Shown here: positions 3,291 through 21,562 of the stretch, piece after piece
Numbering within the stretch: position 1 is the first letter of the stretch
Layout of the letters: every line of letters starts with the position of its first letter
Assembly (NCBI GenBank): GCA_038748515.1
Contig: JBCDIW010000002.1
Coordinates: 382,296 to 422,295 of the forward strand
Source: Pseudomonadota bacterium
GTDB taxonomy: Bacteria > Pseudomonadota > Gammaproteobacteria > Pseudomonadales > Halieaceae
Direction: 5' to 3'
DNA length: 40,000 nucleotides
The notes under the pieces: model-generated
Seen by the model: the letters and a program-made list of their open reading frames with translations, nothing else
Told to the model about the DNA's origin: nothing
Databases searched by the model: none
Made by a program: the position numbers and the translations under genes

Positions 3291-3815
3291 GTGGCAGGGA
3301 TGAGTGTAGGAATCAGTGGCGCTGTGGCCGACGCTTTCAACCGGCAAATCAACAGCGAGTTGAAGGCCAGCTACGCCTACCGGGCCATGGCTGCGTACTT
3401 CGATGATCAGCAGCTGCCGGGGTTTGCCAAGTGGTTTATCCAGCATGCCGAGGAAGAGGTGAGTCACTCGATGCGCCTCTATGATCATCTTGTGCAGCGA
3501 GGTGCCCGGGTAACGCTTGAGGCTATGGAGCAACCTGAATCAGAGTTTGCGGATCCGGAGGCTGCCGTGTTGGCGGCGCTCTCCATGGAGGGGGAGGTCA
3601 CCGCTCAAATCAATGAGCTGTTTGACCTGGTTCAAGAGAGCAAGGACTTCGGTTCGCAGCCCGTCCTGCATTGGTTCCTGGACGAACAGGTCTCCGAAGA
3701 AGACACCTTCTCCCGCCTTCTCGATCAAGTAAAGTCAGCGGGGGACAGCCGTTGGCATCTGCTAGCCCTGGACCAGCAGCTCGGGGGTGCGGGCGCGAGC
3801 GTGGACGAAGGCTGA
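3291..3815 (+). CDS. Non-heme ferritin (true start may be the ATG at 3300)
   Basis: Ferritin four-helix motifs are present: INSELKASYAYRAMAAYF, HAEEEVSHSMRLYDHL, LDEQVSEE. Confidence 0.85.
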   Translation: MAGMSVGISGAVADAFNRQINSELKASYAYRAMAAYFDDQQLPGFAKWFIQHAEEEVSHSMRLYDHLVQRGARVTLEAMEQPESEFADPEAAVLAALSMEGEVTAQINELFDLVQESKDFGSQPVLHWFLDEQVSEEDTFSRLLDQVKSAGDSRWHLLALDQQLGGAGASVDEG

Positions 3816-3900
3816 CATCGCATCGAGACTGTACGGGGGTTATGGCACGGGCTTTTTCCTGGCGCGGTGGCTGACTACCCGATATTGCTAAGCCTAGAAT

Positions 3901-4016
3901 GTTCAGCGGTTCAGCGGTTCAGCGGTTCAGCGGTTCAGCGGTCCCCAGCGGTTCAGTGGTCCAGCGGTACGGCGGCATAGCGGTGTAGCGGTACAGTGGC
4001 AAAGCAGCACAGCGTG
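3901..4016. repeat. 8-bp tandem array, GTTCAGCG x5 perfect, decaying into about 9 degenerate GNNNAGCG units
   Basis: Read directly: gttcagcg repeats five times from 3901, followed by gtccccagcg gttcagtg gtccagcg gtacggcg gcatagcg gtgtagcg gtacagtg. It lies between the convergent ferritin and dnaE2 3' ends. Confidence 0.9.
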
Positions 4017-4119
4017 AGGGCTGTATGCGCTGATGTTCCACAGCAAGCGTTTTCCTTGCCGAAACCGGTGATCTGCTTTTTCGTGGCGCCTCGTGCCGCT
4101 CGCTCGCTGTGTGTTGCAG

Positions 4120-7100
4120 TCAGCGAAAGCTTCGCGGTTTTACACCCAGCTCCCCAAGGGCCTGCGAATGATCAAAGAGGGCGCCGGCAACGATGTGCGT
4201 CACGCCGTCTTTTTTCTGCAGTGTTCCTTTCACAAGCAGTAGCCGGCCTTTCATCAACGCTTCGCGGAACTGCACCTGAACGCCGGGCCAGACCACCACG
4301 TTGTTATTGCCCGTCTCATCTTCCAGGGTAAGGAAAAGAACGCCGGACGCCGTGCCCGGACGCTGTCGACAGGTGACGAGCCCGGCGATACGCACAAAGC
4401 GTCCGTCGCCGAGGGCTTCGAGATCCCGATTCCGCTTGCACTGGGTGAAGGGCGCACGCTCGCGCAGCAATGCCAGGGGATGGGCGCGCAGGCTGAGCCC
4501 CGTGCTCTGGTAATCAGCGACCACCGCTTCGGCCACGGCTGGGGCTTCGAGTTCGACCGCATCGCTGAGCTCCGAAGATGATGCCTGGCGTTCGTGTCCG
4601 AGGAGCGGACGCTCTGGTTCCAATGCCATCACCTGCCAGCGTGCCTGGTGGCGGTTGCCGCTAAGGCTGGCGAGGGCGTCGGCATCCACCAGCGCTTCCA
4701 TGGCGCCCTTGTCGAGCTGCGCGCGGCGGCGCAGATCCGCAATCTGACGGAATGCGCCGTGCTGGCGAGCCTCCCTGATCCGCTCGGCGGCTTCCCGGGC
4801 CAGACCCTTGACCAAACGGAGACCGAGGCGGACCGGCGCTTTGTGACCGGCGCGGCCATCGTCCAGGAGCTGGTGATCCCAATCGCTGTGGTTGACGTCG
4901 ATGGCGAGCACGTCCACGCCGTGGCGTCGCGCATCCTGAATGAGCTGCGACGGCGTGTAGAAACCCATGGGCTGGCTGTTCAGCAGGCCCACGTAGAAAG
5001 CCGCCGGGTGATGGCGTTTGAGCCAGGCAGACACATAGGCGAGGAGAGCGAAGCTCGCCGAGTGCGACTCGGGAAAACCATAACCACCGAAGCCCTTGAT
5101 CTGATCGAAGAGGCGTTTGGCGTAGTCCTCCGTATAGCCGCGGCGCAGCATGCCCTGAGTGAGCTTTTGCTCGAAGGTCATCAGCTTGCTGTTGCGTCCC
5201 CAGTTGGTGATGGCGCGACGGAGCTGGTCCGCCTCGCCACCGGTAAACCCCGCGGCGACCATCGCCAGGCGAATCACCTGCTCCTGGAAGATCGGCACAC
5301 CCAGGGTGCTCTGCAGCACGCTTTTCACGGCGTCATCGGGGTAGGTGACATCCTCCAGACCCTGGCGGCGGCGCAGATAGGGATGAACCATATCCCCCTG
5401 GATCGGCCCGGGGCGCACGATGGCAATTTCGATGACCAGGTCGTAGAAGCAGGCAGGCTTGAGGCGCGGCAGCATGGTCATCTGCGCTCGCGACTCGATC
5501 TGGAACACACCCAAGGAGTCGGCCTGCTGCAGCATGTGGTAGGTGGCGCTGTCTTCGGTCGGTACGTCCTGCAGGCTGCGGATGCGCGGGTCGTAGCGCT
5601 GCACCAGATCCAGGGATTTGCGGATCGCCGAGAGCATGCCCAGGGCAAGAACGTCGACCTTGAGCAGGCCGAGGGCTTCGATGTCTTCCTTGTCCCATTG
5701 GATGACCGTGCGGTCTGCCATGCTCGCGTTCTCCACGGGCACGAGCTGGGAGATGGGGCCGCGGGAGATCACGAAGCCGCCGACGTGCTGCGAGAGGTGG
5801 CGGGGGAAGCCGAGGATCTCCTGCACCAGTTGATAGAAGAGGGTGGCGGTGCTTGTTTCGCCGTCATCGCGTTCTGTGTCGAGGCCGTGCTCGGCGAAGC
5901 GTGCTTCGAGGTCGCGCTGTTTATCCCACCAGGCCAGGGACTTGGCGAGATCGTCGATGAAGATCGGGTCCAGGCCGAGCGCCTTGCCCACGTCGCGGAC
6001 GGCACTGCGCGCGCGGTAGGTGATGATCGTGGCGGCCAGGGCGGCGCGGCGGCGCGTGTACTTTCGGTAAATGTACTGGATGACTTCCTCGCGGCGTTCG
6101 TGCTCGAAGTCGACGTCGATGTCCGGCGGTTCGTCGCGCTCGCGGGAGATGAAGCGTTCGAAGAGCAGGGAGACCTTTTCCGGTGACACCTCGGTGACGA
6201 ACAGGCAATAGCAGACCACGGAGTTCGCCGCCGAGCCGCGACCCTGGCATAGGATGCCGCGCTCGCGGGCGAAGCGGACCACGTCGTAGACCGTGAGGAA
6301 GTAGTACTCGTAGTCGAGGTCGGCGATGAGCCTGAGTTCGGCTTCTATGCGCTCGTGCACGCTCTGCGGCACGCCGCCGGGCCAGCGCCGGCTGGCGCCC
6401 TGCCAGGTCAGCTCGCGCAGGTAGCTGCGCGCATCGTAGCCTTCGGGGACGACTTCCTCGGGGTATTCGTAGCGCAGTTCATCGAGGCTGAAGCGGCACT
6501 GGCGGGCGATGCGCCGGGTCTCCTTTAGCAACTCAGGTGGGTAGAAGCGTTCGAGCTGGTTGAGGCCGCGCAGGTGCTGCTGGGCATTGGGCAGGCGGCG
6601 GCTGCCGAGTTCGGCGATGCTGCAGTTGTGATAGAGCGCGGTCATCACATCGTGCAAAGGCTTGCGCGCGGCGCTGTGCATGCGTACATCGCCGCAGGCC
6701 ACCAGGGGAAGCCCGAGGTCCTGGCCGAGCGTCTGCAATGTCCGGTAGCGACGCAGCTCATCGTTGCCCAGCAGGTAGTGCACGCCGATCCACACACGCT
6801 CGCGACACAGGCGCGCGAGCTGGCGCCCGAAACCTCGCGTGCTCTCATCGTCGTCCCGGGGCAGCCAGATCAACAGGCAGCGTTTGAGCTGGAAGATCAC
6901 GTCGCGCAGGGCCAGCTCGTACTCGCCCTTGGGGCTACGCCGCCGTCCGAGGCTGATCAGTCCCGAGAGTTCGGCATAGGCCGCGCGAGTGGGCGCGATA
7001 GCAATCAGACGCAGTCCCTCCACCAGCGTGAACTCGCTGCCGATGATCAACTGCAGGCCGCATTCCTTCGCCGCAATGTGGGCCTTTACTACGCCTGATA

Positions 7101-7242
7101 GCGAGCATTCGTCGGTAATCGCGATGCCCGCATAGCCCTTCGCCGCCGCCCCCGCGACCAGCTCTTCCGGCCGGGAAGCTCCGCGCAGGAAACTGAAGCA
7201 GGACAGGCAGTGGAGTTCGGTGTAGTACGCGGAGGAAGGCAT
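4120..7242 (-). CDS. dnaE2: Error-prone DNA polymerase III alpha-like subunit DnaE2 (ImuC)
   Basis: 1040 aa. The N-terminus YTELHCLSCFSFLRGASRPEELV (PHP domain) and overall length are typical of DnaE2 rather than DnaE1. imuA and imuB are on the same strand in this window. Confidence 0.95.
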   Translation of the reverse strand: MPSSAYYTELHCLSCFSFLRGASRPEELVAGAAAKGYAGIAITDECSLSGVVKAHIAAKECGLQLIIGSEFTLVEGLRLIAIAPTRAAYAELSGLISLGRRRSPKGEYELALRDVIFQLKRCLLIWLPRDDDESTRGFGRQLARLCRERVWIGVHYLLGNDELRRYRTLQTLGQDLGLPLVACGDVRMHSAARKPLHDVMTALYHNCSIAELGSRRLPNAQQHLRGLNQLERFYPPELLKETRRIARQCRFSLDELRYEYPEEVVPEGYDARSYLRELTWQGASRRWPGGVPQSVHERIEAELRLIADLDYEYYFLTVYDVVRFARERGILCQGRGSAANSVVCYCLFVTEVSPEKVSLLFERFISRERDEPPDIDVDFEHERREEVIQYIYRKYTRRRAALAATIITYRARSAVRDVGKALGLDPIFIDDLAKSLAWWDKQRDLEARFAEHGLDTERDDGETSTATLFYQLVQEILGFPRHLSQHVGGFVISRGPISQLVPVENASMADRTVIQWDKEDIEALGLLKVDVLALGMLSAIRKSLDLVQRYDPRIRSLQDVPTEDSATYHMLQQADSLGVFQIESRAQMTMLPRLKPACFYDLVIEIAIVRPGPIQGDMVHPYLRRRQGLEDVTYPDDAVKSVLQSTLGVPIFQEQVIRLAMVAAGFTGGEADQLRRAITNWGRNSKLMTFEQKLTQGMLRRGYTEDYAKRLFDQIKGFGGYGFPESHSASFALLAYVSAWLKRHHPAAFYVGLLNSQPMGFYTPSQLIQDARRHGVDVLAIDVNHSDWDHQLLDDGRAGHKAPVRLGLRLVKGLAREAAERIREARQHGAFRQIADLRRRAQLDKGAMEALVDADALASLSGNRHQARWQVMALEPERPLLGHERQASSSELSDAVELEAPAVAEAVVADYQSTGLSLRAHPLALLRERAPFTQCKRNRDLEALGDGRFVRIAGLVTCRQRPGTASGVLFLTLEDETGNNNVVVWPGVQVQFREALMKGRLLLVKGTLQKKDGVTHIVAGALFDHSQALGELGVKPRSFR

Positions 7243-7263
7243 AGTGACAAGGGCGTGGGACGG

Positions 7264-8274
7264 TCACTGGGAGTCCAGCGGGCTGATCACGCCCATCGCG
7301 CCGCGGCCAAGCACGTGCGTGTAGATCTCGGTGGTTTTTACGTCCGAGTGGCCCAGCAGCTTCTGGATAGTCCTCAGATCGTAGCCCTGCTGGAGCAGGC
7401 GGGTCGCGAAGCTGTGTCGGAACGTATGACAGCGCACAGGTTTGTGTATGCCGGCCTGTAAGCGTGCTTTGGTAACGGCTTTGCGCAGAGAGGTTTCGTG
7501 AAGGTGATGGCGTCTATGCACCCCCGAGCGAGGATCGACACCGATACGAGTCGAGGGAAACAGGAACTGCCAGCCCGTCTCGCGGGCGGCCTTCGGGTAC
7601 TTACGGGCCAGGGCGTAGGGCATATAGACCTCACCGTAGCCGTCTTCGATATCGCGCTTGTGAAGCTTCTGCACCAGGGCAACCTGCGCTCGCAGCGGCT
7701 CCTCAAGCGCTGCCGGCAGCAGAGTCACGCGATCCTTATCGCCCTTTCCGGATCGCACCGTGAGTGTATTGAAATCAAAGTCGAGGTCCTTGATTCGCAG
7801 ACTCAGAAGCTCGTTCAGTCGCAGCCCCGACCCATAAAGCAGCTCTGCCATCAATCGGTGGTTGGCTGACATCTGGGCAAGGATTCGAAGTACCTCGGCG
7901 TGAGTAAGCACTACCGGCAGGCGACGCCTCAATCTGGCTTTGCTGAATTCCAGTGAATCCAGACTCATGCCCAGGAAGCGCACGAACAGATAGATCAACG
8001 CGTTTAGCGCGATGCGCTGTGTTGCTGGAGAGCACTGACGCTCATTGGCGAGGTGGCTCAGATACTGCTCGACATGCTCTGCAGAGAGAGTCGCGGGATG
8101 CTGCTTGCCGTGGAAGCGAATGAAGCGAGTGATCCAATGTATGTAGGTCTTTTCCGTCTTCCATGCATACCCACCGTCCCGAAGATGACGGCGTAGCTGA
8201 TCCAGGAGCCGCCTGGGCTGCGCCGGTACCTTGGGTGGAACGTCCGGAATGTTGTTTGATTGAGTACTGTACAT
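7264..8274 (-). CDS. intI: Integron integrase IntI (tyrosine recombinase)
   Basis: 336 aa. It has tyrosine recombinase boxes (HTFRHSFATRLL, LLGHSDVKTTEIYTHV) and the IntI-specific insertion around ALARKYPKAARETGWQFLFPS. It is divergent from an attC-bounded cassette array. Confidence 0.95.
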   Translation of the reverse strand: MYSTQSNNIPDVPPKVPAQPRRLLDQLRRHLRDGGYAWKTEKTYIHWITRFIRFHGKQHPATLSAEHVEQYLSHLANERQCSPATQRIALNALIYLFVRFLGMSLDSLEFSKARLRRRLPVVLTHAEVLRILAQMSANHRLMAELLYGSGLRLNELLSLRIKDLDFDFNTLTVRSGKGDKDRVTLLPAALEEPLRAQVALVQKLHKRDIEDGYGEVYMPYALARKYPKAARETGWQFLFPSTRIGVDPRSGVHRRHHLHETSLRKAVTKARLQAGIHKPVRCHTFRHSFATRLLQQGYDLRTIQKLLGHSDVKTTEIYTHVLGRGAMGVISPLDSQ

Positions 8275-8282
8275 ATATACAG
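8267..8282. promoter_or_regulatory. LexA (SOS) box CTGTACATATATACAG overlapping the intI start codon
   Basis: Perfect gammaproteobacterial CTGT-N8-ACAG palindrome with an AT-only spacer and TA flanks (TACTGTACATATATACAGTA). The intI ATG (8274-8272, minus strand) lies inside it. A TATACT -10-like hexamer overlaps the upstream half-site on the minus strand. Confidence 0.8.
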
Positions 8283-8479
8283 TATAGCTGGGTTTGGGAT
8301 GCTCGTAAGGGGTTTTTCAGCGTGCCTTGGCATACTTCTCCGCTAGTGCGTTGAAATTGCGCAAGTTTTTGCGATGACGACGGTCGAATTCGATGTATCA
8401 GCGTTGGGTACTACGTTCGTTGTTTCTGCCGGGTTAATCTGGGCATACAGTAAGGTATTGAAACATGCAGAAAATTTGC

Positions 8480-8554
8480 CGGGAGTTTGCCTGTGCGAGA
8501 AAAGATAGGGAGAAATGTATTAACGTGCTTTGTCTCGTTAATTAGCTGTTATGT
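8480..8554 (+). other. Putative attI recombination site (core GTTATGT at 8548-8554); left boundary approximate
   Basis: This is the first GTTRRRY core, between intI and the first cassette ORF (ATG at 8564), in an AT-rich spacer. A second GTTAATT lies at 8536-8542. Confidence 0.45.
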
Positions 8555-8561
8555 GTCACAG
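8546..8561. promoter_or_regulatory. Weak LexA-like palindrome CTGTTATGTGTCACAG overlapping the attI core
   Basis: It matches the CTGT-N8-ACAG skeleton, but the spacer (TATGTGTC) and flanks deviate from the consensus. About one chance match is expected in 40 kb. Confidence 0.25.
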
Positions 8562-8563
8562 CG

Positions 8564-8887
8564 ATGAAGCTACTCTTCGTTTGTTCGGAAAATCGCTTGC
8601 GAAGCCCAACAGCAGAAGAGGTCTTCTCTTCCTACCCAGGCGTAGAGGCCATTGGCTGCGGCACTAACGCTGATGCAGAAACACCTCTTTCCGGTGATCT
8701 GATTGAGTGGGCTGACGTTGTCCTTGTCATGGAGAAAACTCATCGCAGCAAGGTGGCGAAGAAGTATCGAGACCTCCTCAAGACGAAGAGGCTCGTGTGT
8801 CTGGATATACCTGACAATTATGCCCGCATGCAGCCAGAACTAGTGCATCTGTTAGAAGCTAAGGTTCCGAAGTATGTGCGTCTGTAG
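8564..8887 (+). CDS. Cassette 1: low-molecular-weight phosphotyrosine phosphatase-like protein
   Basis: 107 aa. The N-terminal LFVCSENRLRS fits the CX5R(S/T) P-loop of LMW-PTP/ArsC-like phosphatases. Confidence 0.65.
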   Translation: MKLLFVCSENRLRSPTAEEVFSSYPGVEAIGCGTNADAETPLSGDLIEWADVVLVMEKTHRSKVAKKYRDLLKTKRLVCLDIPDNYARMQPELVHLLEAKVPKYVRL

Positions 8888-8894
8888 CGGACAC

Positions 8895-8970
8895 ATAACA
8901 AGTCAAGGCTGCAAGGGCGCTTCGCGCCGGGACGTCCGCTGCGCGGCCGCCCCAGCTTGAAGCGTTAGGC
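8895..8970 (+). repeat. attC 1 (type A)
   Basis: ATAACAAGTCAAGGCTGCAAGGGCGCTTCGCGCCGGGACGTCCGCTGCGCGGCCGCCCCAGCTTGAAGCGTTAGGC. R'' ATAAC pairs with R' GTTAG, and L''/L' pair with an extrahelical G. Confidence 0.9.
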
Positions 8971-8990
8971 ATCACCTTAGTCGTCTAAGT

Positions 8991-9335
8991 ATGTGGATTT
9001 ATCTGAAAGCTTTTACCTTCTGTCTCTGTGTGGCGATATTCACCAGCGCTATGCTTGCTGGGTCTGTCTCATTGCTGAAGCCTGAGCAAGCAAAACTTGC
9101 TGAGATCCCCTTGTCGCTTGCTTTCCTATTGCCTATGAATGCAGCTTGTGCGTTCTTGGTCGCTCGAAACCTTGTGGTTGAATCACCTCGCTCGCCGTTG
9201 ATGTTGTCGCTTGGCTTGGCTGTTGCATACCTTCTTCTTCTGCCAATCCAAAGCATCGGGAGTGTGGTTTCTTATACGGGGGTGATTGTGGCTATCGTTC
9301 TGGGGGCTCGGCCTTGGCGAGGCGCCGATGCCTAA
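8991..9335 (+). CDS. Cassette 2: small integral membrane protein, unknown function
   Basis: 114 aa with 3-4 hydrophobic helices. It fills the cassette between attC1 and attC2. Confidence 0.55.
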   Translation: MWIYLKAFTFCLCVAIFTSAMLAGSVSLLKPEQAKLAEIPLSLAFLLPMNAACAFLVARNLVVESPRSPLMLSLGLAVAYLLLLPIQSIGSVVSYTGVIVAIVLGARPWRGADA

Positions 9336-9407
9336 CAAGTCAAGGCTGCAGGGGCGCTTCGCGCCGGGACGTCCGCTACGCGGCCGCCCCAGCTTGAAGC
9401 GTTAGGT
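9332..9407 (+). repeat. attC 2 (type A)
   Basis: CTAACAAGTCAAGGCTGCAGGGGCGC...CAGCTTGAAGCGTTAGGT, near-identical to attC1. Confidence 0.9.
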
Positions 9408-9852
9408 GTCCCAGGTGAGTCCGATGACTCTAGGCGTTCTTGCTGTCCCTGTAGTTTTACTGGGGGCGATTTTTCTCGGCCCGGTGGTCTATAAGGCTTT
9501 CGACCCAGTTTGGGATTTGGTTATGAACAAATACTTATCGAACGTGTGGGGCGATTGGTTCACATACTCAATGCTAATTGCAATCGGGTTCGCAAAAGTA
9601 ATCTCCTTGGCCGGCCTGTCCACGTTATTGCCGGCAATCGTTCTGGCGTACATGCAGCTTGACGGAAGAAGTGCCGCGGTTAGTAGCGTCGTTACAGGCT
9701 CCATAGTTGCGTCAACCGCCTATCTAAGCGGAGTGTGGTCCTTCTACGTTCCGTTTCACTCTTCGCTATGGTTTGGTTTCGCTCTGATTACTTGTTTAGT
9801 TGCTCTGGCTATGTGGGTTGAAGCTAGGAGTTTTCGTTGGCTGCTGAAATAA
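9406..9852 (+). CDS. Cassette 3: integral membrane protein, unknown function (GTG start inside the attC2 core)
   Basis: 148 aa with about 4 hydrophobic helices. It fills the cassette. Confidence 0.55.
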   Translation: MSQVSPMTLGVLAVPVVLLGAIFLGPVVYKAFDPVWDLVMNKYLSNVWGDWFTYSMLIAIGFAKVISLAGLSTLLPAIVLAYMQLDGRSAAVSSVVTGSIVASTAYLSGVWSFYVPFHSSLWFGFALITCLVALAMWVEARSFRWLLK

Positions 9853-9855
9853 CAC

Positions 9856-9940
9856 CTAACAAGTCAAGGCTGCAAGGGCGCTTCGCGCCGGGACGATCAA
9901 ACCGCTACGCGGTTTGCCGCCCCAGCTTGAAGCGTTAACG
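9856..9940 (+). repeat. attC 3 (type A, longer central loop)
   Basis: CTAACAAGTCAAGGCTGCAAGGGCGCTTCGCGCCGGGACGATCAAACCGCTACGCGGTTTGCCGCCCCAGCTTGAAGCGTTAACG. Confidence 0.85.
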
Positions 9941-10231
9941 AGCGCATATCCCTCTGGCCAGGGTGAGAGGCAATCGGGTCGTATGACACCTCTGTTTAGT
10001 TATCCAATGATTAGCTTCTCAGTGGTCTCAAAACTAGTACGGTTCGTTCCTGGAGCCACATCTCCGGCCGGAGCTATCCTTCAGTCCGGTCGCTTCAGGC
10101 GGCGGGGTAGCGCGCTCAAAGATCTCTCTCTAATTTGCAGGACAGCGCGATTGCGCGGCGGATCCGCTCGGGCGTGGCCTTCGCATACGCTGCGGCAGGT
10201 TGGTCGCCTCGAAGTCCTTCCCAGCGCTGCG

Positions 10232-10317
10232 TTAACCAGTGAAGGCTGCAAGGGCGCTTCGCGCCGGGACACCAAAACCGCTACGCGGTTTCGGCGCCCC
10301 AGCTTGAAGCGTTATGC
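10232..10317 (+). repeat. attC 4 (type A variant)
   Basis: TTAACCAGTGAAGGCTGCAAGGGCGCTTCGCGCCGGGACACCAAAACCGCTACGCGGTTTCGGCGCCCCAGCTTGAAGCGTTATGC. Confidence 0.85.
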
Positions 10318-10330
10318 GTCCCTCTAGCGC

Positions 10331-10756
10331 ATGATTTGCGTCGAAACGCGGAGTTTCCAACAGCAGATTGAGGTGCTGAAGCACTTAGCAAGTGATCGTG
10401 CGCTGATGGTTTGTGCGTGGTTGTATCCCGAGTCGGAACTCCAAAGTATCGCTGGCTTCGATACTGACTTGGTTCCGGTCGGGCTACAGCCTGTTACCAC
10501 GTACGGTGACAACCATCAGCCGCGCCATACCACGCTGTGTATCGCCTCCAACGATGCGTTTGAAGCCTTCTCCGATGCGGAGTCCGAAGTGCGTGCAAAT
10601 TGCGATTGCCTCGCGCTCTACACGGAAGGCGAGTCGTCTTGGTATGCGTCAGCCATTGGGCACGAAGGCATGTGTTTGCTCAACACAGAAGCAACGCCGT
10701 CAGCTTTGAGAAACGCTGGCTTCACCATATCTAACGAGGCGCCGCCGTGGTGGTGA
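10331..10756 (+). CDS. Cassette 5: hypothetical cytoplasmic protein
   Basis: 141-aa ORF filling the cassette. No motif recognised; the protein ends ...NEAPPWW. Confidence 0.5.
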   Translation: MICVETRSFQQQIEVLKHLASDRALMVCAWLYPESELQSIAGFDTDLVPVGLQPVTTYGDNHQPRHTTLCIASNDAFEAFSDAESEVRANCDCLALYTEGESSWYASAIGHEGMCLLNTEATPSALRNAGFTISNEAPPWW

Positions 10757-10759
10757 CGC

Positions 10760-10835
10760 ATAACAAGTCAAGGCTGCAAGGGCGCTTCGCGCCGGGACGT
10801 CCGCTACGCGGCCGCCCCAGCTTGAAGCGTTATGC
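10760..10835 (+). repeat. attC 5 (type A)
   Basis: ATAACAAGTCAAGGCTGCAAGGGCGC...CAGCTTGAAGCGTTATGC. Confidence 0.9.
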
Positions 10836-10853
10836 GGCTTGAACTAGGCCCTC

Positions 10854-11087
10854 ATGCAATTTGAGATCATTGGGGCTATTGAATCCGCTGAAACTTTTGC
10901 AACGGGTCGGGGTATACGCGAGCTCCCGCGCCTCAAGCGCATTTATGGCAATGGACGATAGCGTAAGCGAAAGGGAGAGGCGACCATCCGCCTTACGGAT
11001 GGCACTATTCTTAGAGCGGAGATACACTGGTACGAAGCCACGGGTATCGGGCGCAAAGAGTACAAGATCAAGCGCCTACTGGACTGA
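10854..11087 (+). pseudogene. Cassette 6 gene A: small conserved protein interrupted by an in-frame TAG at 10959-10961 (probable TGG to TAG)
   Basis: ATG at 10854 gives MQFEIIGAIESAETFATGRGIRELPRLKRIYGNGR, then TAG. The same frame continues RKRKGEATIRLTDGTILRAEIHWYEATGIGRKEYKIKRLLD to the TGA at 11085. The GR-W-RK context and the HWYEA.GIG..E.KIK tail resemble a small protein family I recall from cassette and TA contexts. Confidence 0.5.
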
Positions 11088-11088
11088 T

Positions 11089-11310
11089 ATGACCATTCCA
11101 AAATACGTAATCTGCATCGAAAACACCGACTACGAGGCTTCACTGGAAGTGCGGAAGATCTACGAGGTGGTTCCGGACGCTCGGGCTCAGACTCTCGGGC
11201 ATCTACGTGTCATTGATGAGTCTGGTGAAGACTATATGTACCCCGCTGAGCGCTTCGTTGATGCTCACCTATCTAAGTCTGTCGAAGAGGCAGTCGCAAA
11301 CGCCGCATAA
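11089..11310 (+). CDS. Cassette 6 gene B: small acidic protein (73 aa), possible partner of gene A
   Basis: The ATG lies 1 nt after the gene A stop. MTIPKYVICIENTDYEASLEVRKIYEVVPDARAQTLGHLRVIDESGEDYMYPAERF... reads as a globular protein. The upstream part of the 149-aa track ORF is a different-frame artefact. Confidence 0.5.
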   Translation: MTIPKYVICIENTDYEASLEVRKIYEVVPDARAQTLGHLRVIDESGEDYMYPAERFVDAHLSKSVEEAVANAA

Positions 11311-11394
11311 CAAGGCCAGGCAGCTCGCTCCCTTCGGTCGCCGGACGTCAAAATCGCTACGCGCTTTTGCCGCCCGCTGCTGGCAGCGTTAAGC
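11307..11394 (+). repeat. attC 6 (type B)
   Basis: ATAACAAGGCCAGGCAGCTCGCTCCCTTCGGTCGCCGGACGTCAAAATCGCTACGCGCTTTTGCCGCCCGCTGCTGGCAGCGTTAAGC. Confidence 0.85.
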
Positions 11395-11419
11395 GGCTGC
11401 ATCCACTACTCGTGCCAAC

Positions 11420-11656
11420 GTGAAAGTCACCAAGTACTTCGAATCTCTGTCTGCTCGACCTGATCGTGCGGGCATCAAACCTGAGTGGATCCAGCGAGTT
11501 GTGCGTGCTCCCGAAAGAGAGCATATTCAGGCCGACGGCCGCATACGACGGTGGGCTCCTGTGCCGGAGATGCAAGGCCGTTACTTGCGTGTAGTCCTGC
11601 TTCCCGACGGCGAAACAGTTCACAACGCGTTTTTTGATAGGGGCTACAAGCCGTGA
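11420..11656 (+). CDS. Cassette 7 gene 1: DUF4258-like putative toxin
   Basis: 78 aa. The ...GRYLRVVLLPDGETVHNAFFDRGY tail is typical of DUF4258. Its stop overlaps the next start (GTGA at 11653-11656). Confidence 0.65.
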   Translation: MKVTKYFESLSARPDRAGIKPEWIQRVVRAPEREHIQADGRIRRWAPVPEMQGRYLRVVLLPDGETVHNAFFDRGYKP

Positions 11657-11850
11657 AAGCTAAATACTTCAGAGATACCGATACGCTCTACATCGAGTTT
11701 AGAGCAGGTGACATCGTCGAAACGCGCGATCTCGATGAAGATACAGTGATTGAACTCGATGCCAACGGGAACATCTGTGCAATGACCATGGAGCACGCCA
11801 AAGATCGCACCGATGCACTCCACTTCACATTCGAAGAAGTCGCCGCTTAA
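11653..11850 (+). CDS. Cassette 7 gene 2: DUF2283-like putative antitoxin
   Basis: 65 aa. MKAKYFRDTDTLYIEFRAGDIVETRDLDEDTVIELDANGNICAMTMEHA fits the DUF2283 pattern (D.lYi.f....es.e....v..D..G.i.g.e). Confidence 0.65.
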   Translation: MKAKYFRDTDTLYIEFRAGDIVETRDLDEDTVIELDANGNICAMTMEHAKDRTDALHFTFEEVAA

Positions 11851-11925
11851 CAAGGTGTGGCTGGCGCTCCGCTGGGACGTCAAAACCGCTGCGCGGTTTC
11901 GCCGCCCCAGCACACGGCGTTATGC
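11847..11925 (+). repeat. attC 7 (variant arms)
   Basis: TTAACAAGGTGTGGCTGGCGCTCCGCTGGGACGTCAAAACCGCTGCGCGGTTTCGCCGCCCCAGCACACGGCGTTATGC. Confidence 0.8.
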
Positions 11926-12284
11926 GTAACTCCGCCGCACTTCGCCTTTTGGCGGTGATGCCTCTCGGAATTCTGCTCTGGGAATGGGCTTCTTGGCTCG
12001 AGCTCGCGCAGGAGCATGCTTCGCGTCCAGCAGGATCAACGCTACTTGTGAATGTATCCGGAGTGATTGTCCTCGGCCTTCTTGTCAGCCAGTCTGCCCC
12101 TTCCAGGTCGATGTCGATGTTGGCGTTGGGCTGGTGTGCAATCTCCGTAGTGGAGACGATGTTTAGTTTCCAGGTATTCGAGTTTAAGGGGTTGATTGCT
12201 GCTTGGGTGGCTCCGGCGTTACTACAGGTTTTGGTTCTAAGTCCTGCCATTGCGTTGGCGTATCGCAATGCCCGTCACGCATAA
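11922..12284 (+). CDS. Cassette 8: small integral membrane protein (ATG inside the attC7 GTTATGC core)
   Basis: 120 aa with 3-4 hydrophobic helices. Confidence 0.5.
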   Translation: MRNSAALRLLAVMPLGILLWEWASWLELAQEHASRPAGSTLLVNVSGVIVLGLLVSQSAPSRSMSMLALGWCAISVVETMFSFQVFEFKGLIAAWVAPALLQVLVLSPAIALAYRNARHA

Positions 12285-12368
12285 CAAGGCCAGGCAGTTC
12301 GCTCCCTTTGGTCGCCGGACGTCCAATCCGCTGCGCGGCTTGGCCGTCCGCTGCTGGCGGCGTTATGC
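12281..12368 (+). repeat. attC 8 (type B)
   Basis: ATAACAAGGCCAGGCAGTTCGCTCCCTTTGGTCGCCGGACGTCCAATCCGCTGCGCGGCTTGGCCGTCCGCTGCTGGCGGCGTTATGC. Confidence 0.85.
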
Positions 12369-12413
12369 GGCTACCGACTTGACATACCGAATAGGGTATA
12401 TATCGTATAAAGT

Positions 12414-12698
12414 ATGTGGGTTGTCTACGAACATCGAAACGTCGATAAGCAGCTCGCGAAGACGCCTTCGGAGGTTCAGAAGCGTTACGAGAAGTGGAAA
12501 GACATCGTTGAGTTGTCCGGCCCGCAGGGAGTAAAGCTTATTCGTGGGTTTCGTGATGAAGCCCTACGAGGTGAATGGAAGGGCTATCGATCCTCCCGCC
12601 TCAACCAGCAGTATCGAGTTATCTACAGACTCGATGGAAGTAGATTCGAAGTATTCGTGGTCGATGTCACGCCCCACGATTATCGAAGGAAATCCTGA
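12414..12698 (+). CDS. Cassette 9 gene 1: RelE/ParE-superfamily (HigB-like) toxin
   Basis: 94 aa. ...LRGEWKGYRSSRLNQQYRVIYRLDGSRFEVFVVDVTPHDY is the typical RelE-fold C-terminus. Its stop overlaps the next start (ATGA). Confidence 0.8.
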   Translation: MWVVYEHRNVDKQLAKTPSEVQKRYEKWKDIVELSGPQGVKLIRGFRDEALRGEWKGYRSSRLNQQYRVIYRLDGSRFEVFVVDVTPHDYRRKS

Positions 12699-12958
12699 TG
12701 AGTGACTTTCGAAAAGCAAAACGTCGCGTTGCCGTATCTCCCGGTGAGTCTGTGAGAATCATCCGTGAGCTTCAAGAACTTAGCCAAAACCAGCTTGCAG
12801 AACTGGCTGGAATGCCACAATCAACAATCTCAGCAATCGAGACCGGAAGAGTCAATCTAGGAGTAGATCGCGCCAAGACTCTCGCGCGTGTGCTGAAGTG
12901 TCATCCAGCAGTATTGGTGTTCCCTGGATGGGATGTTGGTACTGAATCCGCCGCATAA
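12698..12958 (+). CDS. Cassette 9 gene 2: XRE-family HTH antitoxin (HigA-like)
   Basis: 86 aa with an HTH motif (LSQNQLAELAGMPQSTISAIETGRVNLGVDRAKTLARVL). It is translationally coupled to the toxin. Confidence 0.8.
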   Translation: MSDFRKAKRRVAVSPGESVRIIRELQELSQNQLAELAGMPQSTISAIETGRVNLGVDRAKTLARVLKCHPAVLVFPGWDVGTESAA

Positions 12959-13030
12959 CAAGTCAAGGCTGCAAGGGCGCTTCGCGCCGGGACGTCCGCT
13001 GCGCGGCCGCCCCAGCTTGAAGCGTTATAT
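12955..13030 (+). repeat. attC 9 (type A)
   Basis: ATAACAAGTCAAGGCTGCAAGGGCGC...CAGCTTGAAGCGTTATAT. Confidence 0.9.
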
Positions 13031-13063
13031 GGATGGCGCCAGCAATACCGCAGTGACTTCGTT

Positions 13064-13462
13064 ATGAATGAGTCTAATCTTGTAGAGGTAGTGATCTACA
13101 TCCGGGAGCAAATCGCGTTCCTGTGGAATTTTTATGTCACTGTGAGTGCGGTACTAATCGGGTGGGTGTTTTCTTCTAAGATGCAATGGTCGAGAGAGGT
13201 AGGCCTTATTGTACGAGGGCTGTTCGTGGTGTTTGCCTCAATCAATGGAATAGCGCTTTACAACGAGTACTCTCTAATGCACTTGGCAATAGATGATCTC
13301 CGGTCTCGCTCAGATGCAACGAGTGGCTTTGTCTACGAGTTTTCTCGTTCGGGCGGTCTTGGGCCGTCTGTTGCGGCGCTTACCCATCTCGTGGGTGATA
13401 TCGTCATTCTGTCACTTATCAATTTGCGGCTCCGCAGTGTTCTCCCACCTAGATCCACATAA
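13064..13462 (+). CDS. Cassette 10: integral membrane protein, unknown function
   Basis: 132 aa with 3-4 hydrophobic helices. The stop lies in the ATAAC inverse core of its attC. Confidence 0.5.
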   Translation: MNESNLVEVVIYIREQIAFLWNFYVTVSAVLIGWVFSSKMQWSREVGLIVRGLFVVFASINGIALYNEYSLMHLAIDDLRSRSDATSGFVYEFSRSGGLGPSVAALTHLVGDIVILSLINLRLRSVLPPRST

Positions 13463-13466
13463 CAAG

Positions 13467-14663
<1,197 letters not shown>

Positions 14664-14761
14664 ATCATACAAGTCAAGGCTGCAGGGGCGCTTCGCGCCG
14701 GGACGTCCGCTACGCTGCCGCCCAGCTTGACGCGATAGATGTGCTTGTCCGAGGTTGCGAT

Positions 14762-14962
14762 ATGCCAAAAAGTCCTGACAAGCAGAATCCTGAGAATGCT
14801 TCCTCATCAGGTGCTGCGATCGCTATAGGTGTAGGTATCGGAGTAGCGTTCGGCTTGCCGTTTGGGTTGGCAATAGAGAATGTTGGTGTCGGCGTGGGCG
14901 TTGGCACGGGTATCGGTGTTGCGCTTGGCATTGCTATTGGTGCGGCTAGAGGGAAGTCCTAG
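14762..14962 (+). CDS. Cassette 11: glycine-zipper small membrane protein
   Basis: 66 aa from the ATG at 14762, with GAGG 8 nt upstream. The GAAIAIGVGIGVAFGLPFGLAIENVGVGVGVGTGIGVALGIAIGAA repeats form a GxxxG zipper. Confidence 0.5.
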   Translation: MPKSPDKQNPENASSSGAAIAIGVGIGVAFGLPFGLAIENVGVGVGVGTGIGVALGIAIGAARGKS

Positions 14963-14985
14963 CGTGTCTTGTCTAGATCGCCCAC

Positions 14986-15070
14986 CTAACGAGTTAAGGC
15001 TTCAAGGTCGCTTTGTGCCGGGACGTCAAAACCGTTACGCCGTTTCGCCGCCCGTGCTTGAAGCCTTGCC
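14986..15070 (+). repeat. attC 11 (diverged type A, degenerate R')
   Basis: CTAACGAGTTAAGGCTTCAAGGTCGCTTTGTGCCGGGACGTCAAAACCGTTACGCCGTTTCGCCGCCCGTGCTTGAAGCCTTGCCT. Confidence 0.65.
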
Positions 15071-15118
15071 TGCCTTAAGGAGCAGGGATGCACCGGAACC
15101 GTTTTAGAGCTCTGCAAC

Positions 15119-15292
15119 ATGCGAATCATCGGTCCAGATTCGGCTATGGCCGTTACGAAATGGAGGCGCCTCGGCCGGGGCGACGAAGTCGTCGAGCGCC
15201 TGGGAACGACATACACGCTAGTGAAAGTAGGGGCTGAGTGGAAAGTAGCCGTCGTGATAGTACACGATGAGGATGTAGTTCTTTTCGAATAA
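15119..15292 (+). pseudogene. Cassette 12: possible remnant of an NTF2-like/DUF4440-type gene (57-aa ORF)
   Basis: MRIIGPDSAMAVTKWRRLGRGDEVVERLGTTYTLVKVGAEWKVAVVIVHDEDVVLFE resembles only the C-terminal strands of an NTF2-like fold. It is below the ORF-track cutoff. A competing Arg-rich 49-aa ORF with a strong AAGGAG site starts at 15088. Confidence 0.25.
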
Positions 15293-15332
15293 CGGCAAGG
15301 TGGTTATCGGTGCGAAACAATTGCTCCGCATC

Positions 15333-15404
15333 GTACGTGGCCAGGCAAGCCGCTTCGCGGAACATCAAACCGACAGTTTGCCGCCCATGCTGGTAGCGTT
15401 ATGT
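15333..15404 (+). repeat. attC 12 (type B, degenerate R''), last recognisable attC
   Basis: ...GTGGCCAGGCAAGCCGCTTCGCGGAACATCAAACCGACAGTTTGCCGCCCATGCTGGTAGCGTTATGT. Confidence 0.6.
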
Positions 15405-15944
15405 GTCTCTTTCTATGCCCAGCTAGTTCGAGAGGTGCTGAAATGAAGGGCCAGGAGGCCCGCTCAGCATCCATCCCAGTTCGAACCGTCGTTTAGCGTA
15501 GTCAGATGATTGTACTTCGACGCCTTGTACCAGACGATGCTCCGGAAGTTGCCTCCTTGGTTGGCGACGCAGCGGTCTCAAAGAGGACGTCGAGTTTCCC
15601 CCATCCATACCACGAGCGAGATGCGATCGCCGCAGCTTGAACTCTCGGGCTTTGTCCCCACTTCTAAAGCTGACGTAAAGTGCTTTCTGCGGCGTACTGT
15701 TTCGACGTCGTGGGCAAAAGCGCTGTCGTGGCGAGTCAGCATTGACGGTAGGGATGACGTGCAACCACTGCGATGCGAACGTTGGCTTAGAGCGTAAGGA
15801 TCAGTAAGGGGCTCAGCCACGATGCAAAGATCTTTCAAAACTCGTGCATCAGTCAGGAGTACGAGGCTACATTGTCGCTGGCGTATTGAAAGCGGCTGAA
15901 TGATCAAGCTGCTATCTGTCAACCAACGGATGGAATGAGCTGCG

Positions 15945-16511
15945 ATGAGTTCTACGAAGGATGCCTTGTTTAAAGTGTTGTTGACAGGAGTTACTAAAGG
16001 GACCCGCCTGAGAGCCTCCCCTACACCAGCTGATCGCCGCGCCGCGTTCGCCGCGGGTGTGGTGGTGCTATGGAGTTCATTTGTCGTTCCATCGATTGCG
16101 CAGGAAAAAGCCGTGTATGTAGCGAAAGGAAGCTTCGAAGTGAATATAAAGCCCTCGAAAGAGGCCGATGAGGCGGATGGTGTTTCCCTGGGTCGATTCG
16201 ATCTCGAGAAGGGCTTTTCGGGTGATCTGATCGGAACCTCCGAGGGCGAGATGCTCACCGCCAGGACCGCAACAGAGGGATCCGCAGGCTACGTTGCGAT
16301 TGAGCGTTTTACGGGATCATTGAAAGGGCTCGCCGGCACGTTTGTGCTTCAGCACACGGGGACGATGCAGGCCGGCGATCAGACTCTCGCGATATCAATT
16401 GTGCCGGATTCCGGAACGGGCGAGCTTTCGGGCATCTCAGGGAATTTTCAGCTCCGTATCGAGGGTGGAGATCACTACTATGAACTCGAATACTCACTGG
16501 GCGACGGGTAG
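15945..16511 (+). CDS. DUF3224-family protein with an N-terminal signal-like extension
   Basis: The C-terminal 130 aa (GSFEVNIKP...FSGDLIGTSEGEMLTA...GYVAIERFTGSL.G..GTFVLQHTG...) matches my recollection of DUF3224. Confidence 0.65.
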   Translation: MSSTKDALFKVLLTGVTKGTRLRASPTPADRRAAFAAGVVVLWSSFVVPSIAQEKAVYVAKGSFEVNIKPSKEADEADGVSLGRFDLEKGFSGDLIGTSEGEMLTARTATEGSAGYVAIERFTGSLKGLAGTFVLQHTGTMQAGDQTLAISIVPDSGTGELSGISGNFQLRIEGGDHYYELEYSLGDG

Positions 16512-16531
16512 GCGGCGAACGGGATACAGAT

Positions 16532-17155
16532 TTGAAGCTGACCGTAATCAGTGACACGCATGGAACGCAGGAAAGCCTTGGAAATTTGTCCGGCGAGGTG
16601 CTGATCCACTGCGGCGACATGTTCAACATGTTTGACGAGTCCCACGATGATTTTGAGCGCATGGATGACTGGTTCGGCCGGCAGGACTTTGAGCTCATTC
16701 TCTGTACGGGCGGGAACCACGACTTTGAGTTGCAAAAAAGGGCGCTGTACACGGACAGGCCCTTTCGCAATGCAGTTTTTCTTGAGGGCGAGAGTTTTAC
16801 GTTTAAGGACGTCGTTTTCTTCGGCGCGCCCTGGGTGCCGGACCTCTACGGTCAGGCCTTCTTTAAGGATGACGACGAGCTGCCTAGCCGATGGGCTGAG
16901 ATCCCCGATAATGTGGATGTGCTGATTACGCACACGCCACCCTTTGGCGTGTTGGACGTGTCTTCTTCGGGGATGGTCCTGGGATGCAGGCATCTGTCAG
17001 CAGCGGTGTCTCGGGCACAGCCCACGGTGCACTGTTTCGGTCATGTCCACGCGAGCGCTGGCAGGGAGGTCGATGGGCAAACGACCTATATCAACGCTGC
17101 GTTGGCGAACAAACGGCATCAGGTTAGTCGCCCGCCCTACGAGATCGATATCTAA
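16532..17155 (+). CDS. Metallophosphoesterase (calcineurin-like)
   Basis: The VISDTHG, HCGDMF, GGNHD, ITHTPP and CFGHVH motifs appear in the canonical order. TTG start. Confidence 0.8.
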   Translation: MKLTVISDTHGTQESLGNLSGEVLIHCGDMFNMFDESHDDFERMDDWFGRQDFELILCTGGNHDFELQKRALYTDRPFRNAVFLEGESFTFKDVVFFGAPWVPDLYGQAFFKDDDELPSRWAEIPDNVDVLITHTPPFGVLDVSSSGMVLGCRHLSAAVSRAQPTVHCFGHVHASAGREVDGQTTYINAALANKRHQVSRPPYEIDI

Positions 17156-17179
17156 CATGCCCGGGGACGCGGGTTATCG

Positions 17180-17497
17180 GTGCCGGGTTGTCAGTCGAGG
17201 AAGGCGAGATCGTGCTCTTTCTTCCTGGCGCAGTTTTACTTGGTGCCATTCGTGTTTGGCGTTTTAGGCGCCCGCGCGGCCTGGGAGGCGATGCAGCCCC
17301 GCAGGAAGAAGTGTGGGCGCTGCGGCCTCTACTACCGCGAGAGCCTTGAGAAGTGCCGTTGGTGTGGAGACCTGGATGAAAACGGCCTGGCTGAATTGAA
17401 GGCGCGGTTGGACCGTGAGCACCGGGGCAACAAGTCCCTTGGCCACCTGTTTTTTCTCATCGCTGTGGCATGCGCTGTCGTTGTCCTGCTGATCTGA
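17180..17497 (+). CDS. Small zinc-ribbon protein with a C-terminal transmembrane helix (start uncertain)
   Basis: A CGRCG...CRWCG pair of CxxC motifs, followed by a coiled segment and the hydrophobic tail LFFLIAVACAVVVLLI. Confidence 0.4.
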   Translation: MPGCQSRKARSCSFFLAQFYLVPFVFGVLGARAAWEAMQPRRKKCGRCGLYYRESLEKCRWCGDLDENGLAELKARLDREHRGNKSLGHLFFLIAVACAVVVLLI

Positions 17498-17579
17498 CGA
17501 TCCACACGCCGACGAATACATCGACCCCCGTCCTGCTTGCGTACACCTCTCGTAGATCCAAAAAGCAAGTAAAGATCCT

Positions 17580-19223
<1,644 letters not shown>

Positions 19224-19368
19224 TGAGCCTCGCGGTGAAGGTCCGGATGCCCAGCCAGCGTCCGTTGGAGGCGAAGCCGGAAAGCGCTTTATCCCGCAAC
19301 TTCGAACGGGTTTCTAGAGTAGTGCTGCGCTACGCCTCCAGCACTGACTCATCCCCTTAGCGTGCTCC

Positions 19369-19815
19369 GTGGACTGGGTCAGGGAATCGAAAAAGCTGTT
19401 CACGGCGCCCAAGCCGGTGCACTTCACCGATTTCCGGCACTGCTGCGAGTGCGAAGAACACGATGAAACACTTCGAGGGAGTTCGGTCGACATCATTGGC
19501 CTAGCGGAGCTCGGCAATCCCGGTTGGGATCCGTTGAATTTCTGTACGGTCGAAGGTCTGGACTACTACTTTCCAGCACTCGTTCGCCTGTCCCTTGATA
19601 CCGTCGATACCGATGCGTTCTACTTCGAGCAGCTACTGTTTCACCTGGAAAACGGCGGGCGGGGAAATCGTCTGTACTTGCACGCTTCGAGGCGGCAACG
19701 GGCATTCGTCGCCTCGTTCCTGGAGCACATGATCACGGCCTTTCCGAGCCAGCTCGACGCGAACGGGTGTGCCGACGATGCTCTGCGCACTTATGAGTTA
19801 TGGTTCAACGCCTGA
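19369..19815 (+). CDS. Hypothetical Cys/His-motif protein (CCECEEH), unknown function
   Basis: 148-aa ORF with coding-like composition and a GTG start. No confident family assignment. Confidence 0.5.
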   Translation: MDWVRESKKLFTAPKPVHFTDFRHCCECEEHDETLRGSSVDIIGLAELGNPGWDPLNFCTVEGLDYYFPALVRLSLDTVDTDAFYFEQLLFHLENGGRGNRLYLHASRRQRAFVASFLEHMITAFPSQLDANGCADDALRTYELWFNA

Positions 19816-19838
19816 GACCAGAGCAGTCCGAGGCCCTC

Positions 19839-20279
19839 ATGAAGCGACATACTTACTCGATATCCATCAACAAATCCCGGGACACGGTATTCAACAAGCT
19901 TGTGGACAAAGAGCTCTATCCGCGGTGGGCCAGGGCCTGGGGAGCTGGCATGCGCTGCGAAGGAGAGTGGACAGTAGGCGGTCACATCTCCTATTTCGAT
20001 TCCAAGCGGGGCGGTACAAGAGTCGTCATTGAGGAGTTTGTCCCCGGCGAATCAATCAAGACAAAGCACGTGGCAATGGTCGATCCCGAAAATGTCGACG
20101 TCGAACTGGCGGACGAAACGATGCGCAAATGGATAGGTTCGCAGGAGGACTACGCCTTCATGGAGGAGCATGGCGCAACGACGTTTCGAGTGGAAATGAC
20201 GGCGGACGAGGCCTTCGATGAGATGATGAACGCCTGGCCCCAGGCTTTGGAGTACTTCAAGGAGGCTTGCGAAGCGTAG
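19839..20279 (+). CDS. SRPBCC/AHSA1-like ligand-binding protein
   Basis: MKRHTYSISINKSRDTVFNKLVDKELYPRW... has the size and pattern of an SRPBCC fold. The ATG at 19839 is preceded by GAGG. Confidence 0.55.
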   Translation: MKRHTYSISINKSRDTVFNKLVDKELYPRWARAWGAGMRCEGEWTVGGHISYFDSKRGGTRVVIEEFVPGESIKTKHVAMVDPENVDVELADETMRKWIGSQEDYAFMEEHGATTFRVEMTADEAFDEMMNAWPQALEYFKEACEA

Positions 20280-20353
20280 CTGCGGGGCCGTCTCCGCTTA
20301 CACTTTGATCCTCGCGGCGCGTCCGGTGCGAACGGTAGCGAGAAAACCCCGGC

Positions 20354-20689: not shown

Positions 20690-20902
20690 CGGCAACCCTG
20701 GTAACAAAACAACTCCATTGTGAAGCTGAGACGGAGGGCCTCGATGGAGCACAGTTCTCAGACAAGATTGAAGTCGATTTGTCCGTCTGCTTCGACGCCC
20801 TGGCGCTATCGTGAACGAATTGTGCTCTGCGCGTCCAGACCGTGGATCTGCGACACTATTCGCATCGCCAAACGCGTGCTTTCCGAGGACCTGCGCAACG
20901 CC

Positions 20903-21376: not shown

Positions 21377-21562
21377 ATGCGGGAAAGAGAGCGCTCTCGA
21401 TATAGGGTGCCTGTCAACCCGAGGGTAATCAGCTACAGATTCGCGAGTTTACTTCGTGATGGCCAGAGTCGCTGATATGGGGAAGGTGCGCACCCGGACG
21501 CGGTGGTCGGCCTATGCGGCGTGTTCGGAAAACTCAGGAATTGATATCGGGAGATTCGCAAG

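Follow-up and report, generated by a model that had tools for sequence, protein, structure and literature searches.

LexA control of intI, the integrase gene of integrons, is widespread (PMC3108266), and the mutagenesis cassette of imuA, imuB and dnaE2, or SOS mutasome, is persistently regulated by LexA wherever it is present (PMC3323433). In the Vibrionaceae, the presence of the mutagenesis cassette correlates with which chromosome carries the superintegron, with no physical linkage described (PMC3323433), and the survey of LexA-intI promoters is silent on any polymerase or operon lying downstream of intI (PMC3108266). We analyzed a 40-kb window (the whole stretch of DNA studied here, 40,000 nucleotides of contig JBCDIW010000002.1) from a gammaproteobacterium of the family Halieaceae (OM60/NOR5), in which intI lies immediately upstream of dnaE2, the mutasome polymerase gene, on the same strand. 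The anatomy of this locus and its comparison with related loci suggest that intI and dnaE2 are co-transcribed from the LexA-controlled promoter of intI, a reading to which we assign a probability of roughly 0.8.

The locus resembles several described systems and departs from each of them. In the LexA-repressed intI systems of class 1 integrons and Vibrio cholerae, as in the window, a LexA box of the E. coli type lies across the promoter/start region of intI, and the gene for a bona fide IntI is divergent from attI and the attC array. In the window, in contrast, a second SOS gene, dnaE2, apparently belongs to the same transcription unit as intI, and the mutasome locus harbours the integron. The imuA-imuB-dnaE2 cassette (PMC3323433) has the same three genes, on one strand and in canonical order, in units headed by LexA boxes; that of the window differs in being split in three and in its dnaE2, which lacks its own box and apparently uses that of intI. 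Sedentary chromosomal integrons, of which the Vibrio superintegrons are examples, share with the integron of the window their vertical inheritance at one locus, homogeneous attC sites and repeated decay or loss of intI. Xanthomonas integrons adjoin ilvD, whereas the fixed neighbour in the Halieaceae is an SOS gene located immediately downstream of intI and oriented in the same direction, and here the decay of intI leaves the intI promoter/operator in place for that neighbour. Split mutagenesis cassettes with separate LexA boxes are known, e.g. in Mycobacterium, and we found none in the literature searched that borrows an integrase promoter. Full-text literature searches (integron with dnaE2, imuB or Halieaceae/Congregibacter) returned no description of intI-dnaE2 or integron-mutasome linkage. 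The components are all known; as far as we can tell, the novelty lies in their being fused, in an integron being nested within the mutasome locus and in a host gene having taken over the intI promoter.

The order of elements at the locus is holA, imuA, a 2.6-kb insert, imuB, about 14 kb of other genes, the cassette array, attI, intI, dnaE2 and a convergent ferritin gene. The three mutasome genes are all present, on the same strand and in canonical order, and they are divided into three units with three separate LexA boxes and with opposite-strand genes between the units, rather than forming a single contiguous operon behind one box. The distance from dnaE2 to imuB is 22 kb, and that from imuB to imuA is 2.6 kb. 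A chromosomal integron (attI and 13 attC cassettes) occupies the imuB-dnaE2 spacer and abuts dnaE2. The features at the centre of the analysis are the following.

4120..7242, minus strand: dnaE2 (imuC), error-prone polymerase of the Pol III alpha type, 1040 aa, ATG at 7242-7240
7243..7263, minus strand: intI-dnaE2 junction, 21 nt (ccgtcccacgcccttgtcact), without operator, promoter, terminator or Shine-Dalgarno sequence
7264..8274, minus strand: intI, integron integrase, 336 aa, stop codon TGA at 7266-7264
8265..8285, core 8267-8282, minus strand: predicted LexA (SOS) operator, TACTGTATATATGTACAGTA(T), a perfect CTGT-N8-ACAG

The product of intI is firmly identified as a genuine integron integrase. 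It matches TIGR02249 with 435.7 bits (cutoff 265) over model positions 1-314 of 315, contains the Pfam Phage_integrase and SAM_4 domains, and aligns over its full length to the structure of VchIntIA (2A3V, E 6.8e-94), the alignment including both the IntI-specific additional domain, i.e. the insert YP.A...W.(F/Y)LFPS, and the R, K, HxxR, H and Y motifs. The dnaE2 product matches the model NF004225 'error-prone DNA polymerase' with 1387 bits (cutoff 939) and contains the Pfam domains PHP, DNA_pol3_alpha, finger, HHH_6 and OB.

The core of the operator, CTGTATATATGTACAG (minus-strand reading, 8267..8282), contains the ATG of intI (8274-8272) and scores 36.6 bits on a position weight matrix built from LexA sites of the family. 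The next best site across intI and the gap in the window scores -12.4 bits. The matrix scan bears out the original prediction, made from the letters of this DNA, that the gap has no LexA box and that the sole box upstream of dnaE2 is the one at the start of intI; the positions it gave for the intI stop codon, the dnaE2 ATG and the 21-nt same-strand gap are likewise exact. A 24-nt sequence at the start of intI, GCTATACTGTATATATGTACAGTA, is conserved among the group-A relatives, and the box over the intI promoter/start is kept in all 10 relatives with an intact intI. An invariant -10-like hexamer, TATACT, overlaps the upstream half of the operator and ends six bases before the ATG, and we presume that this region is the promoter/operator of intI and serves dnaE2 as well. 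Farther upstream, a motif cg(G/C)TGAAAA(A)C (8310-8320 and homologous positions in L002-L051) is conserved upstream of intI throughout group A and may represent either a site in attI to which IntI binds or a part of another promoter. In the form cgGTGAAAAAC it was considered as the -35 element of TATACT and was rejected, its distance of 28 nt upstream being too great.

The junction was searched for signals that would separate the two genes. A scan of 3500-9000 for terminator-like and sigma-70-like sites revealed neither along the minus-strand stretch from 8285 to 7240, in line with the original prediction of a gap without a promoter; the scan was insensitive, having missed the intI promoter itself, and constitutes weak negative evidence only. 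The predicted RNA fold of the junction was unremarkable in comparison with shuffled sequence (z -0.96). The gap also has no purine-rich Shine-Dalgarno sequence; most genes in the window have none either, so its absence before dnaE2 says little and was discarded as evidence.

To place the junction in a wider context, we used a scan with DnaE2 over one genome per GTDB species, which returned 66 loci. Every close relative belongs to the Halieaceae (OM60/NOR5 clade: Congregibacter, Halioglobus, Haliea, Luminiphilus), the best matches being 98% (L030) and 91% (L001) identical. A search of other genomes for intI-dnaE2 adjacency, suggested with the original prediction, was successful: a tight same-strand junction occurs in 10 other Halieaceae species genomes, with gaps of 2-24 nt and with IntI 67-95% identical to that of the window. 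An intact intI abutting dnaE2 was found by tblastn in L002, L003, L004, L008, L011, L015, L022, L030 and L051. A junction-pattern scan found both genes on about 19 metagenome contigs as well (gaps of 1-21 nt, IntI 66-99% identical); the pattern was anchored on the Halieaceae-type 'MGV.SP' C-terminus of IntI and finds only such C-termini. The homologous junctions are thus 1-24 nt long, and their sequence is not conserved. Since it recurs across 10 species genomes and about 19 metagenome contigs, the adjacency is, on this comparative evidence, not a matter of chance. The two genes point the same way, no promoter or terminator was found in the short gap between them, and different species share their adjacency, all of which are features of an operon.

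On a neighbour-joining tree of DnaE2, the tight state comprises one eight-taxon clade, which includes the window, together with L015 and L022 in a second deep clade. The identities of IntI and DnaE2 fall in parallel across the tight loci, which suggests that the integron has been at the dnaE2 site since early in the history of the family and has been inherited vertically. Other Halieaceae show further states of the locus. In L028 an intact intI is followed by a 670-nt insertion and then by dnaE2; decayed intI fragments were found in L012, L016, L019, L023, L025, L032 and L057; and the Congregibacter and Luminiphilus loci have no intI, with no intI remnants detected upstream of their dnaE2 genes by a hidden Markov model search. 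Arrays of attC sites, detected with the attC model, lie upstream of intI in L004, L008, L011 and L030, and they also occur at loci in which intI is decayed or undetectable (L012, L016, L023, L024, L025, L057). A contiguous imuA-imuB-dnaE2, the canonical arrangement, is seen in the outgroups (Zhongshania, Moraxellaceae, Oleiphilaceae, Enterovibrio, Rheinheimera and others).

These comparisons bear on the idea that the juxtaposition is a neutral by-product of the landing site of the integron, and that dnaE2 is poorly or not expressed and is decaying. The loss or decay of the integron in many relatives would fit this idea, as would three metagenome loci (L069, L084 and L090) in which, 1 nt beyond an intact intI, no more than the initial 11 codons of dnaE2 (MSYAELHCLS) are present before unrelated sequence begins; in that lineage dnaE2 is, to judge from these contigs, truncated or moved, while intI survived. 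However, all 10 tight genomes have a full-length dnaE2, the junction is maintained in two deep clades, and imuA and imuB are retained with their LexA boxes. In the tight loci, purifying selection acts on intI and dnaE2 alike, with ratios of nonsynonymous to synonymous substitution rates (dN/dS) of 0.04-0.16 (about 0.09 for intI and about 0.08 for dnaE2) at dS mostly above 1, where synonymous sites are saturated. This argues that dnaE2 is not a decaying passenger, and we regard the neutral explanation as extremely improbable.

The distribution of LexA boxes provides the main evidence for an operon. Where no intact intI abuts dnaE2 in the Halieaceae, because intI is absent, decayed or set apart by an insertion, a perfect CTGT-N8-ACAG is located at most 220 nt upstream of dnaE2 in 31 of 31 loci; this count includes L001, in which the box overlaps the dnaE2 start codon. 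In the 10 tight genomes and the window (11/11), the only site is that at the 5' end of intI, with scores of 29-37 bits, and the next best site across intI and the gap reaches at most 2.4 bits in the tight loci, which is the background level. The metagenome contigs have the box 1020-1046 nt upstream of dnaE2 and none between. In this family a box heads each unit into which the mutasome is divided. Outgroups with a contiguous imuA-imuB-dnaE2 have boxes only before imuA, and L035, in which imuA is split from imuB-dnaE2, has a second box before imuB. Halieaceae with a contiguous imuA-imuB have one box there and one before dnaE2, and those with all three genes separate have three boxes, the single exception being L017, which has no perfect box before imuB. 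In L028, dnaE2 has a separate box after the insertion, and intI keeps its own. On the DnaE2 tree the state of the intI-dnaE2 junction changes at least 4-5 times, and the box shifts with it each time. With boxes distributed in this complementary way, and with the mutagenesis cassette under persistent LexA control (PMC3323433), the simplest interpretation is that the intI operator of the tight loci is also the operator of dnaE2.

The same pattern argues against a promoter of dnaE2's own, located inside the 3' part of intI and either independent of LexA or under another regulator, with the adjacency reflecting mere packing of genes. Internal promoters within upstream genes are common, and the sigma-70 scan that failed to reveal one had also failed at intI. 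However, such a promoter would make dnaE2 the sole mutasome unit in the Halieaceae without a LexA box, against the pattern of 31/31 versus 0/11. A conserved promoter inside the 3' end of intI would be expected to raise synonymous conservation there, and no such increase was found in the last 100 codons (0.43-0.45, compared with 0.41 overall and a range of 0.31-0.46), so that these flat values speak against it. We therefore consider a separate dnaE2 promoter unlikely, and natural deletion variants point in the same direction: four of them (L001, L007, L076 and L082) have lost part or all of the 3' region of intI and have kept the 5' promoter/operator region, with one core mismatch in L082.

L001 is the sister of the window and L030, nested in the tight clade; its cassettes and intI are gone, and its dnaE2 reading frame starts at an ATG inside the 24-nt GCTATACTGTATATATGTACAGTA box (MYS..., as in IntI), with no other in-frame start. 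In L007 the same box lies 138 nt upstream of dnaE2 and is followed by a remnant, about 40 nt long, of the 5' coding part of intI (z 7.2 in a local alignment). A comparison of the regions upstream of the box among L001, L009 and the window gave no convincing homology. Two metagenome loci represent intermediate forms: L076 has an internally deleted intI with an intact LexA box, start region and tight dnaE2 junction, and L082 has an in-frame mini-intI of 41 codons with the start region and the tight junction kept. The box region of L082 is rearranged and contains no perfect CTGT-N8-ACAG; its best site has one core mismatch (CTGG), and a second half-site lies downstream. These four variants are the decay products that would be expected if dnaE2 needs the intI promoter. 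A different route is seen in the Halioglobus/Haliea clade, where a canonical promoter is located between the intI remnant and dnaE2. Promoters of this type (upstream of dnaE2 in L012, L013, L016, L023-25, L031, L057 and L059) consist of a perfect TTGACA followed by a LexA box, with only 3-4 nt separating the box from the ATG. With the ATG so close to the box, the dnaE2 mRNA of this group is probably leaderless or nearly so. In the Halioglobus clade this promoter between intI and dnaE2 may have been either gained or lost, with the polarity possible either way.

Taken together, the conserved junction, the complementary boxes and the deletion variants strongly support the reading of intI-dnaE2 as an operon that had been put forward in the original prediction, with co-transcription deduced from sequence. 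We propose that a sedentary, chromosomal integron is lodged inside the split imuA/imuB/dnaE2 SOS mutasome locus, and that transcription would begin at the intI promoter, where a single LexA operator overlaps the -10-like TATACT and the start codon. It would read through intI and the signal-free 21-nt spacer into dnaE2 and end before the convergent ferritin gene. LexA would repress intI and dnaE2 in the undamaged cell; upon DNA damage, RecA-stimulated cleavage of LexA would lead to joint induction of the cassette recombinase and the error-prone polymerase, and imuA and imuB would be induced in parallel, each from its own LexA box. Translation of dnaE2 would probably occur by re-initiation or coupling after the intI stop codon, and coupling is plausible since the gaps are only 1-2 nt in many relatives. 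The mRNA of intI may be leaderless, given the short distance between TATACT and the ATG, and the situation would be similar at imuB and at dnaE2 of the Halioglobus type.

Several points weigh against co-transcription from the intI promoter or limit the evidence for it. Where transcription starts, that it reads through and that LexA binds are inferences from the DNA. There is no convincing -35 element for the intI promoter, as no conserved hexamer was found at 16-18 nt from TATACT, and the insensitivity of the sigma-70 scan applies here as well. The route by which dnaE2 is translated is uncertain, the gaps in the clade of the window being 9-24 nt long and without a Shine-Dalgarno sequence. As for the comparative data, the metagenome pattern selected tight junctions by design, most of the loci compared are metagenome-assembled genomes or metagenome contigs, and related genomes are not independent data points. 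The tight-junction genomes found are without exception metagenome-assembled, and contigs L072, L083, L088, L091 and L093 stem from TARA stations.

The long-lasting adjacency of intI and dnaE2 could also be taken as the genomic footprint, in the Halieaceae, of a functional partnership. ImuA-ImuB-DnaE2 would then act in cassette recombination itself, for instance by synthesis on the folded single-stranded attC or in the replicative resolution of the attC x attI (atypical Holliday) junction, and the operon would ensure matched amounts of the proteins beyond shared timing. In addition to the persistence of the gene pair, it speaks for this view that integron recombination uses single-stranded substrates and that replication is needed to resolve its products. 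However, most integrons elsewhere are unlinked to dnaE2, many Halieaceae keep dnaE2 without intI, and L069, L084 and L090 keep intI without dnaE2, so that a direct role of the mutasome in cassette recombination seems very doubtful. A weaker version is likelier, in which dnaE2 took over the promoter of intI after the arrival of the integron in the mutasome operon, and this dependence now constrains the decay of intI.

If intI and dnaE2 do share a promoter, two textbook routes of stress-induced variation, SOS cassette shuffling and SOS error-prone synthesis, previously linked only by their shared regulator, are physically joined in the Halieaceae in one apparent transcription unit and nested in a single locus, an arrangement that has long been kept in this abundant family of coastal bacteria. 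The family would provide a natural system for studying the co-selection of both functions, the stabilisation of an integron by dependence of the host on the intI promoter, and the takeover of regulatory elements of a mobile platform by its host, of which the intI deletion variants show several stages. It also calls for caution in annotation, as intI promoters may drive downstream host genes.

The remaining features of the locus, from the ferritin gene to imuA, are as follows.

3291-3815, plus strand: ferritin gene, next after dnaE2 and convergent with it
8286..8551: predicted attI region between intI and the first cassette, crossover probably at GTTA, 8548-8551
8552..15404, plus strand: cassette array with 13 attC sites and small open reading frames, transcribed divergently from intI
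13504..14463, minus strand: IS110-family transposase gene within the array (NF033542, 220 bits)
29262-30698, minus strand: imuB, ATG at 30698 (Pfam IMS, 32 bits, cutoff 23)
33336-34388, minus strand: imuA, ATG at 34388 (NF033429 ImuA_translesion, 201 bits, cutoff 150)

The position of attI was deduced from the comparison with the 98%-related locus L030: homology extends from dnaE2 up to exactly 8551 and no farther, and the crossover is therefore probably at 8548-8551. No Pc promoter was identified. The 13 attC sites lie between 8894 and 15404 and have TAAC...GTTA cores, as determined from repeat families and the attC alignment. They match a covariance model (R1, 23 base pairs) with 43-99 bits, and the array shows the R''/L''...L'/R' inverted repeats flanking promoterless open reading frames that are typical of attC arrays. 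The IS110-family gene is situated between the attC sites at 12954-13030 and 14665-14740; some IS110/IS1111 elements target attC sites. The window contains four perfect matches to CTGT-N8-ACAG, and the fourth (8546-8561, CTGTTATGTGTCACAG) spans the GTTA core of attI and the start of the first cassette and is probably not an SOS box.

The original prediction described the anatomy of intI and dnaE2 exactly and missed imuA and imuB, with boxes of their own, as well as the nesting of the integron in the split mutasome locus. The imuB gene, homologous by tblastn to imuB of canonical imuA-imuB-dnaE2 operons, has its LexA box at 30705-30720, with the ATG 7 nt after it. Its 21-nt operator (30703-30723) is identical to the intI operator (8265-8285): the plus strand reads TACTGTACATATATACAGTAT in both, and the asymmetric G/C position is oriented alike with respect to the two genes. 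This identity could result from convergence on the consensus or from copying of the operator. The imuA gene has a Shine-Dalgarno sequence, GAGAGGA, and a LexA box at 34414-34429. The spacer between imuA and imuB (30760-33336, about 2.6 kb) has a GC content of 0.50-0.55, compared with about 0.62, and contains a small membrane-protein-like open reading frame that ends near 30760, together with open reading frames without a family match. Because imuA and imuB are contiguous in L020 and L021, this spacer looks like an insertion.

Between the array and imuB, at 15.4-29.2 kb, there are small, mostly plus-strand genes, including those for two GNATs, a thioesterase, a lipocalin, a DUF3465 protein, AHSA1-like and PEMT-like proteins and a thiamine pyrophosphate (TPP) enzyme. 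The covariance model, run with its filters off, detected no attC beyond 15404, and the region 15405-29261 is partly syntenic with L001 and L010, both of which are without an integron. This region may represent fossil cassettes or an ordinary variable region, its gene content being cassette-like and its membership of the array undemonstrated. It also contains, at 25596-25660, a tandem 13-nt repeat (CCCAACCTCAGTG) in about five copies.

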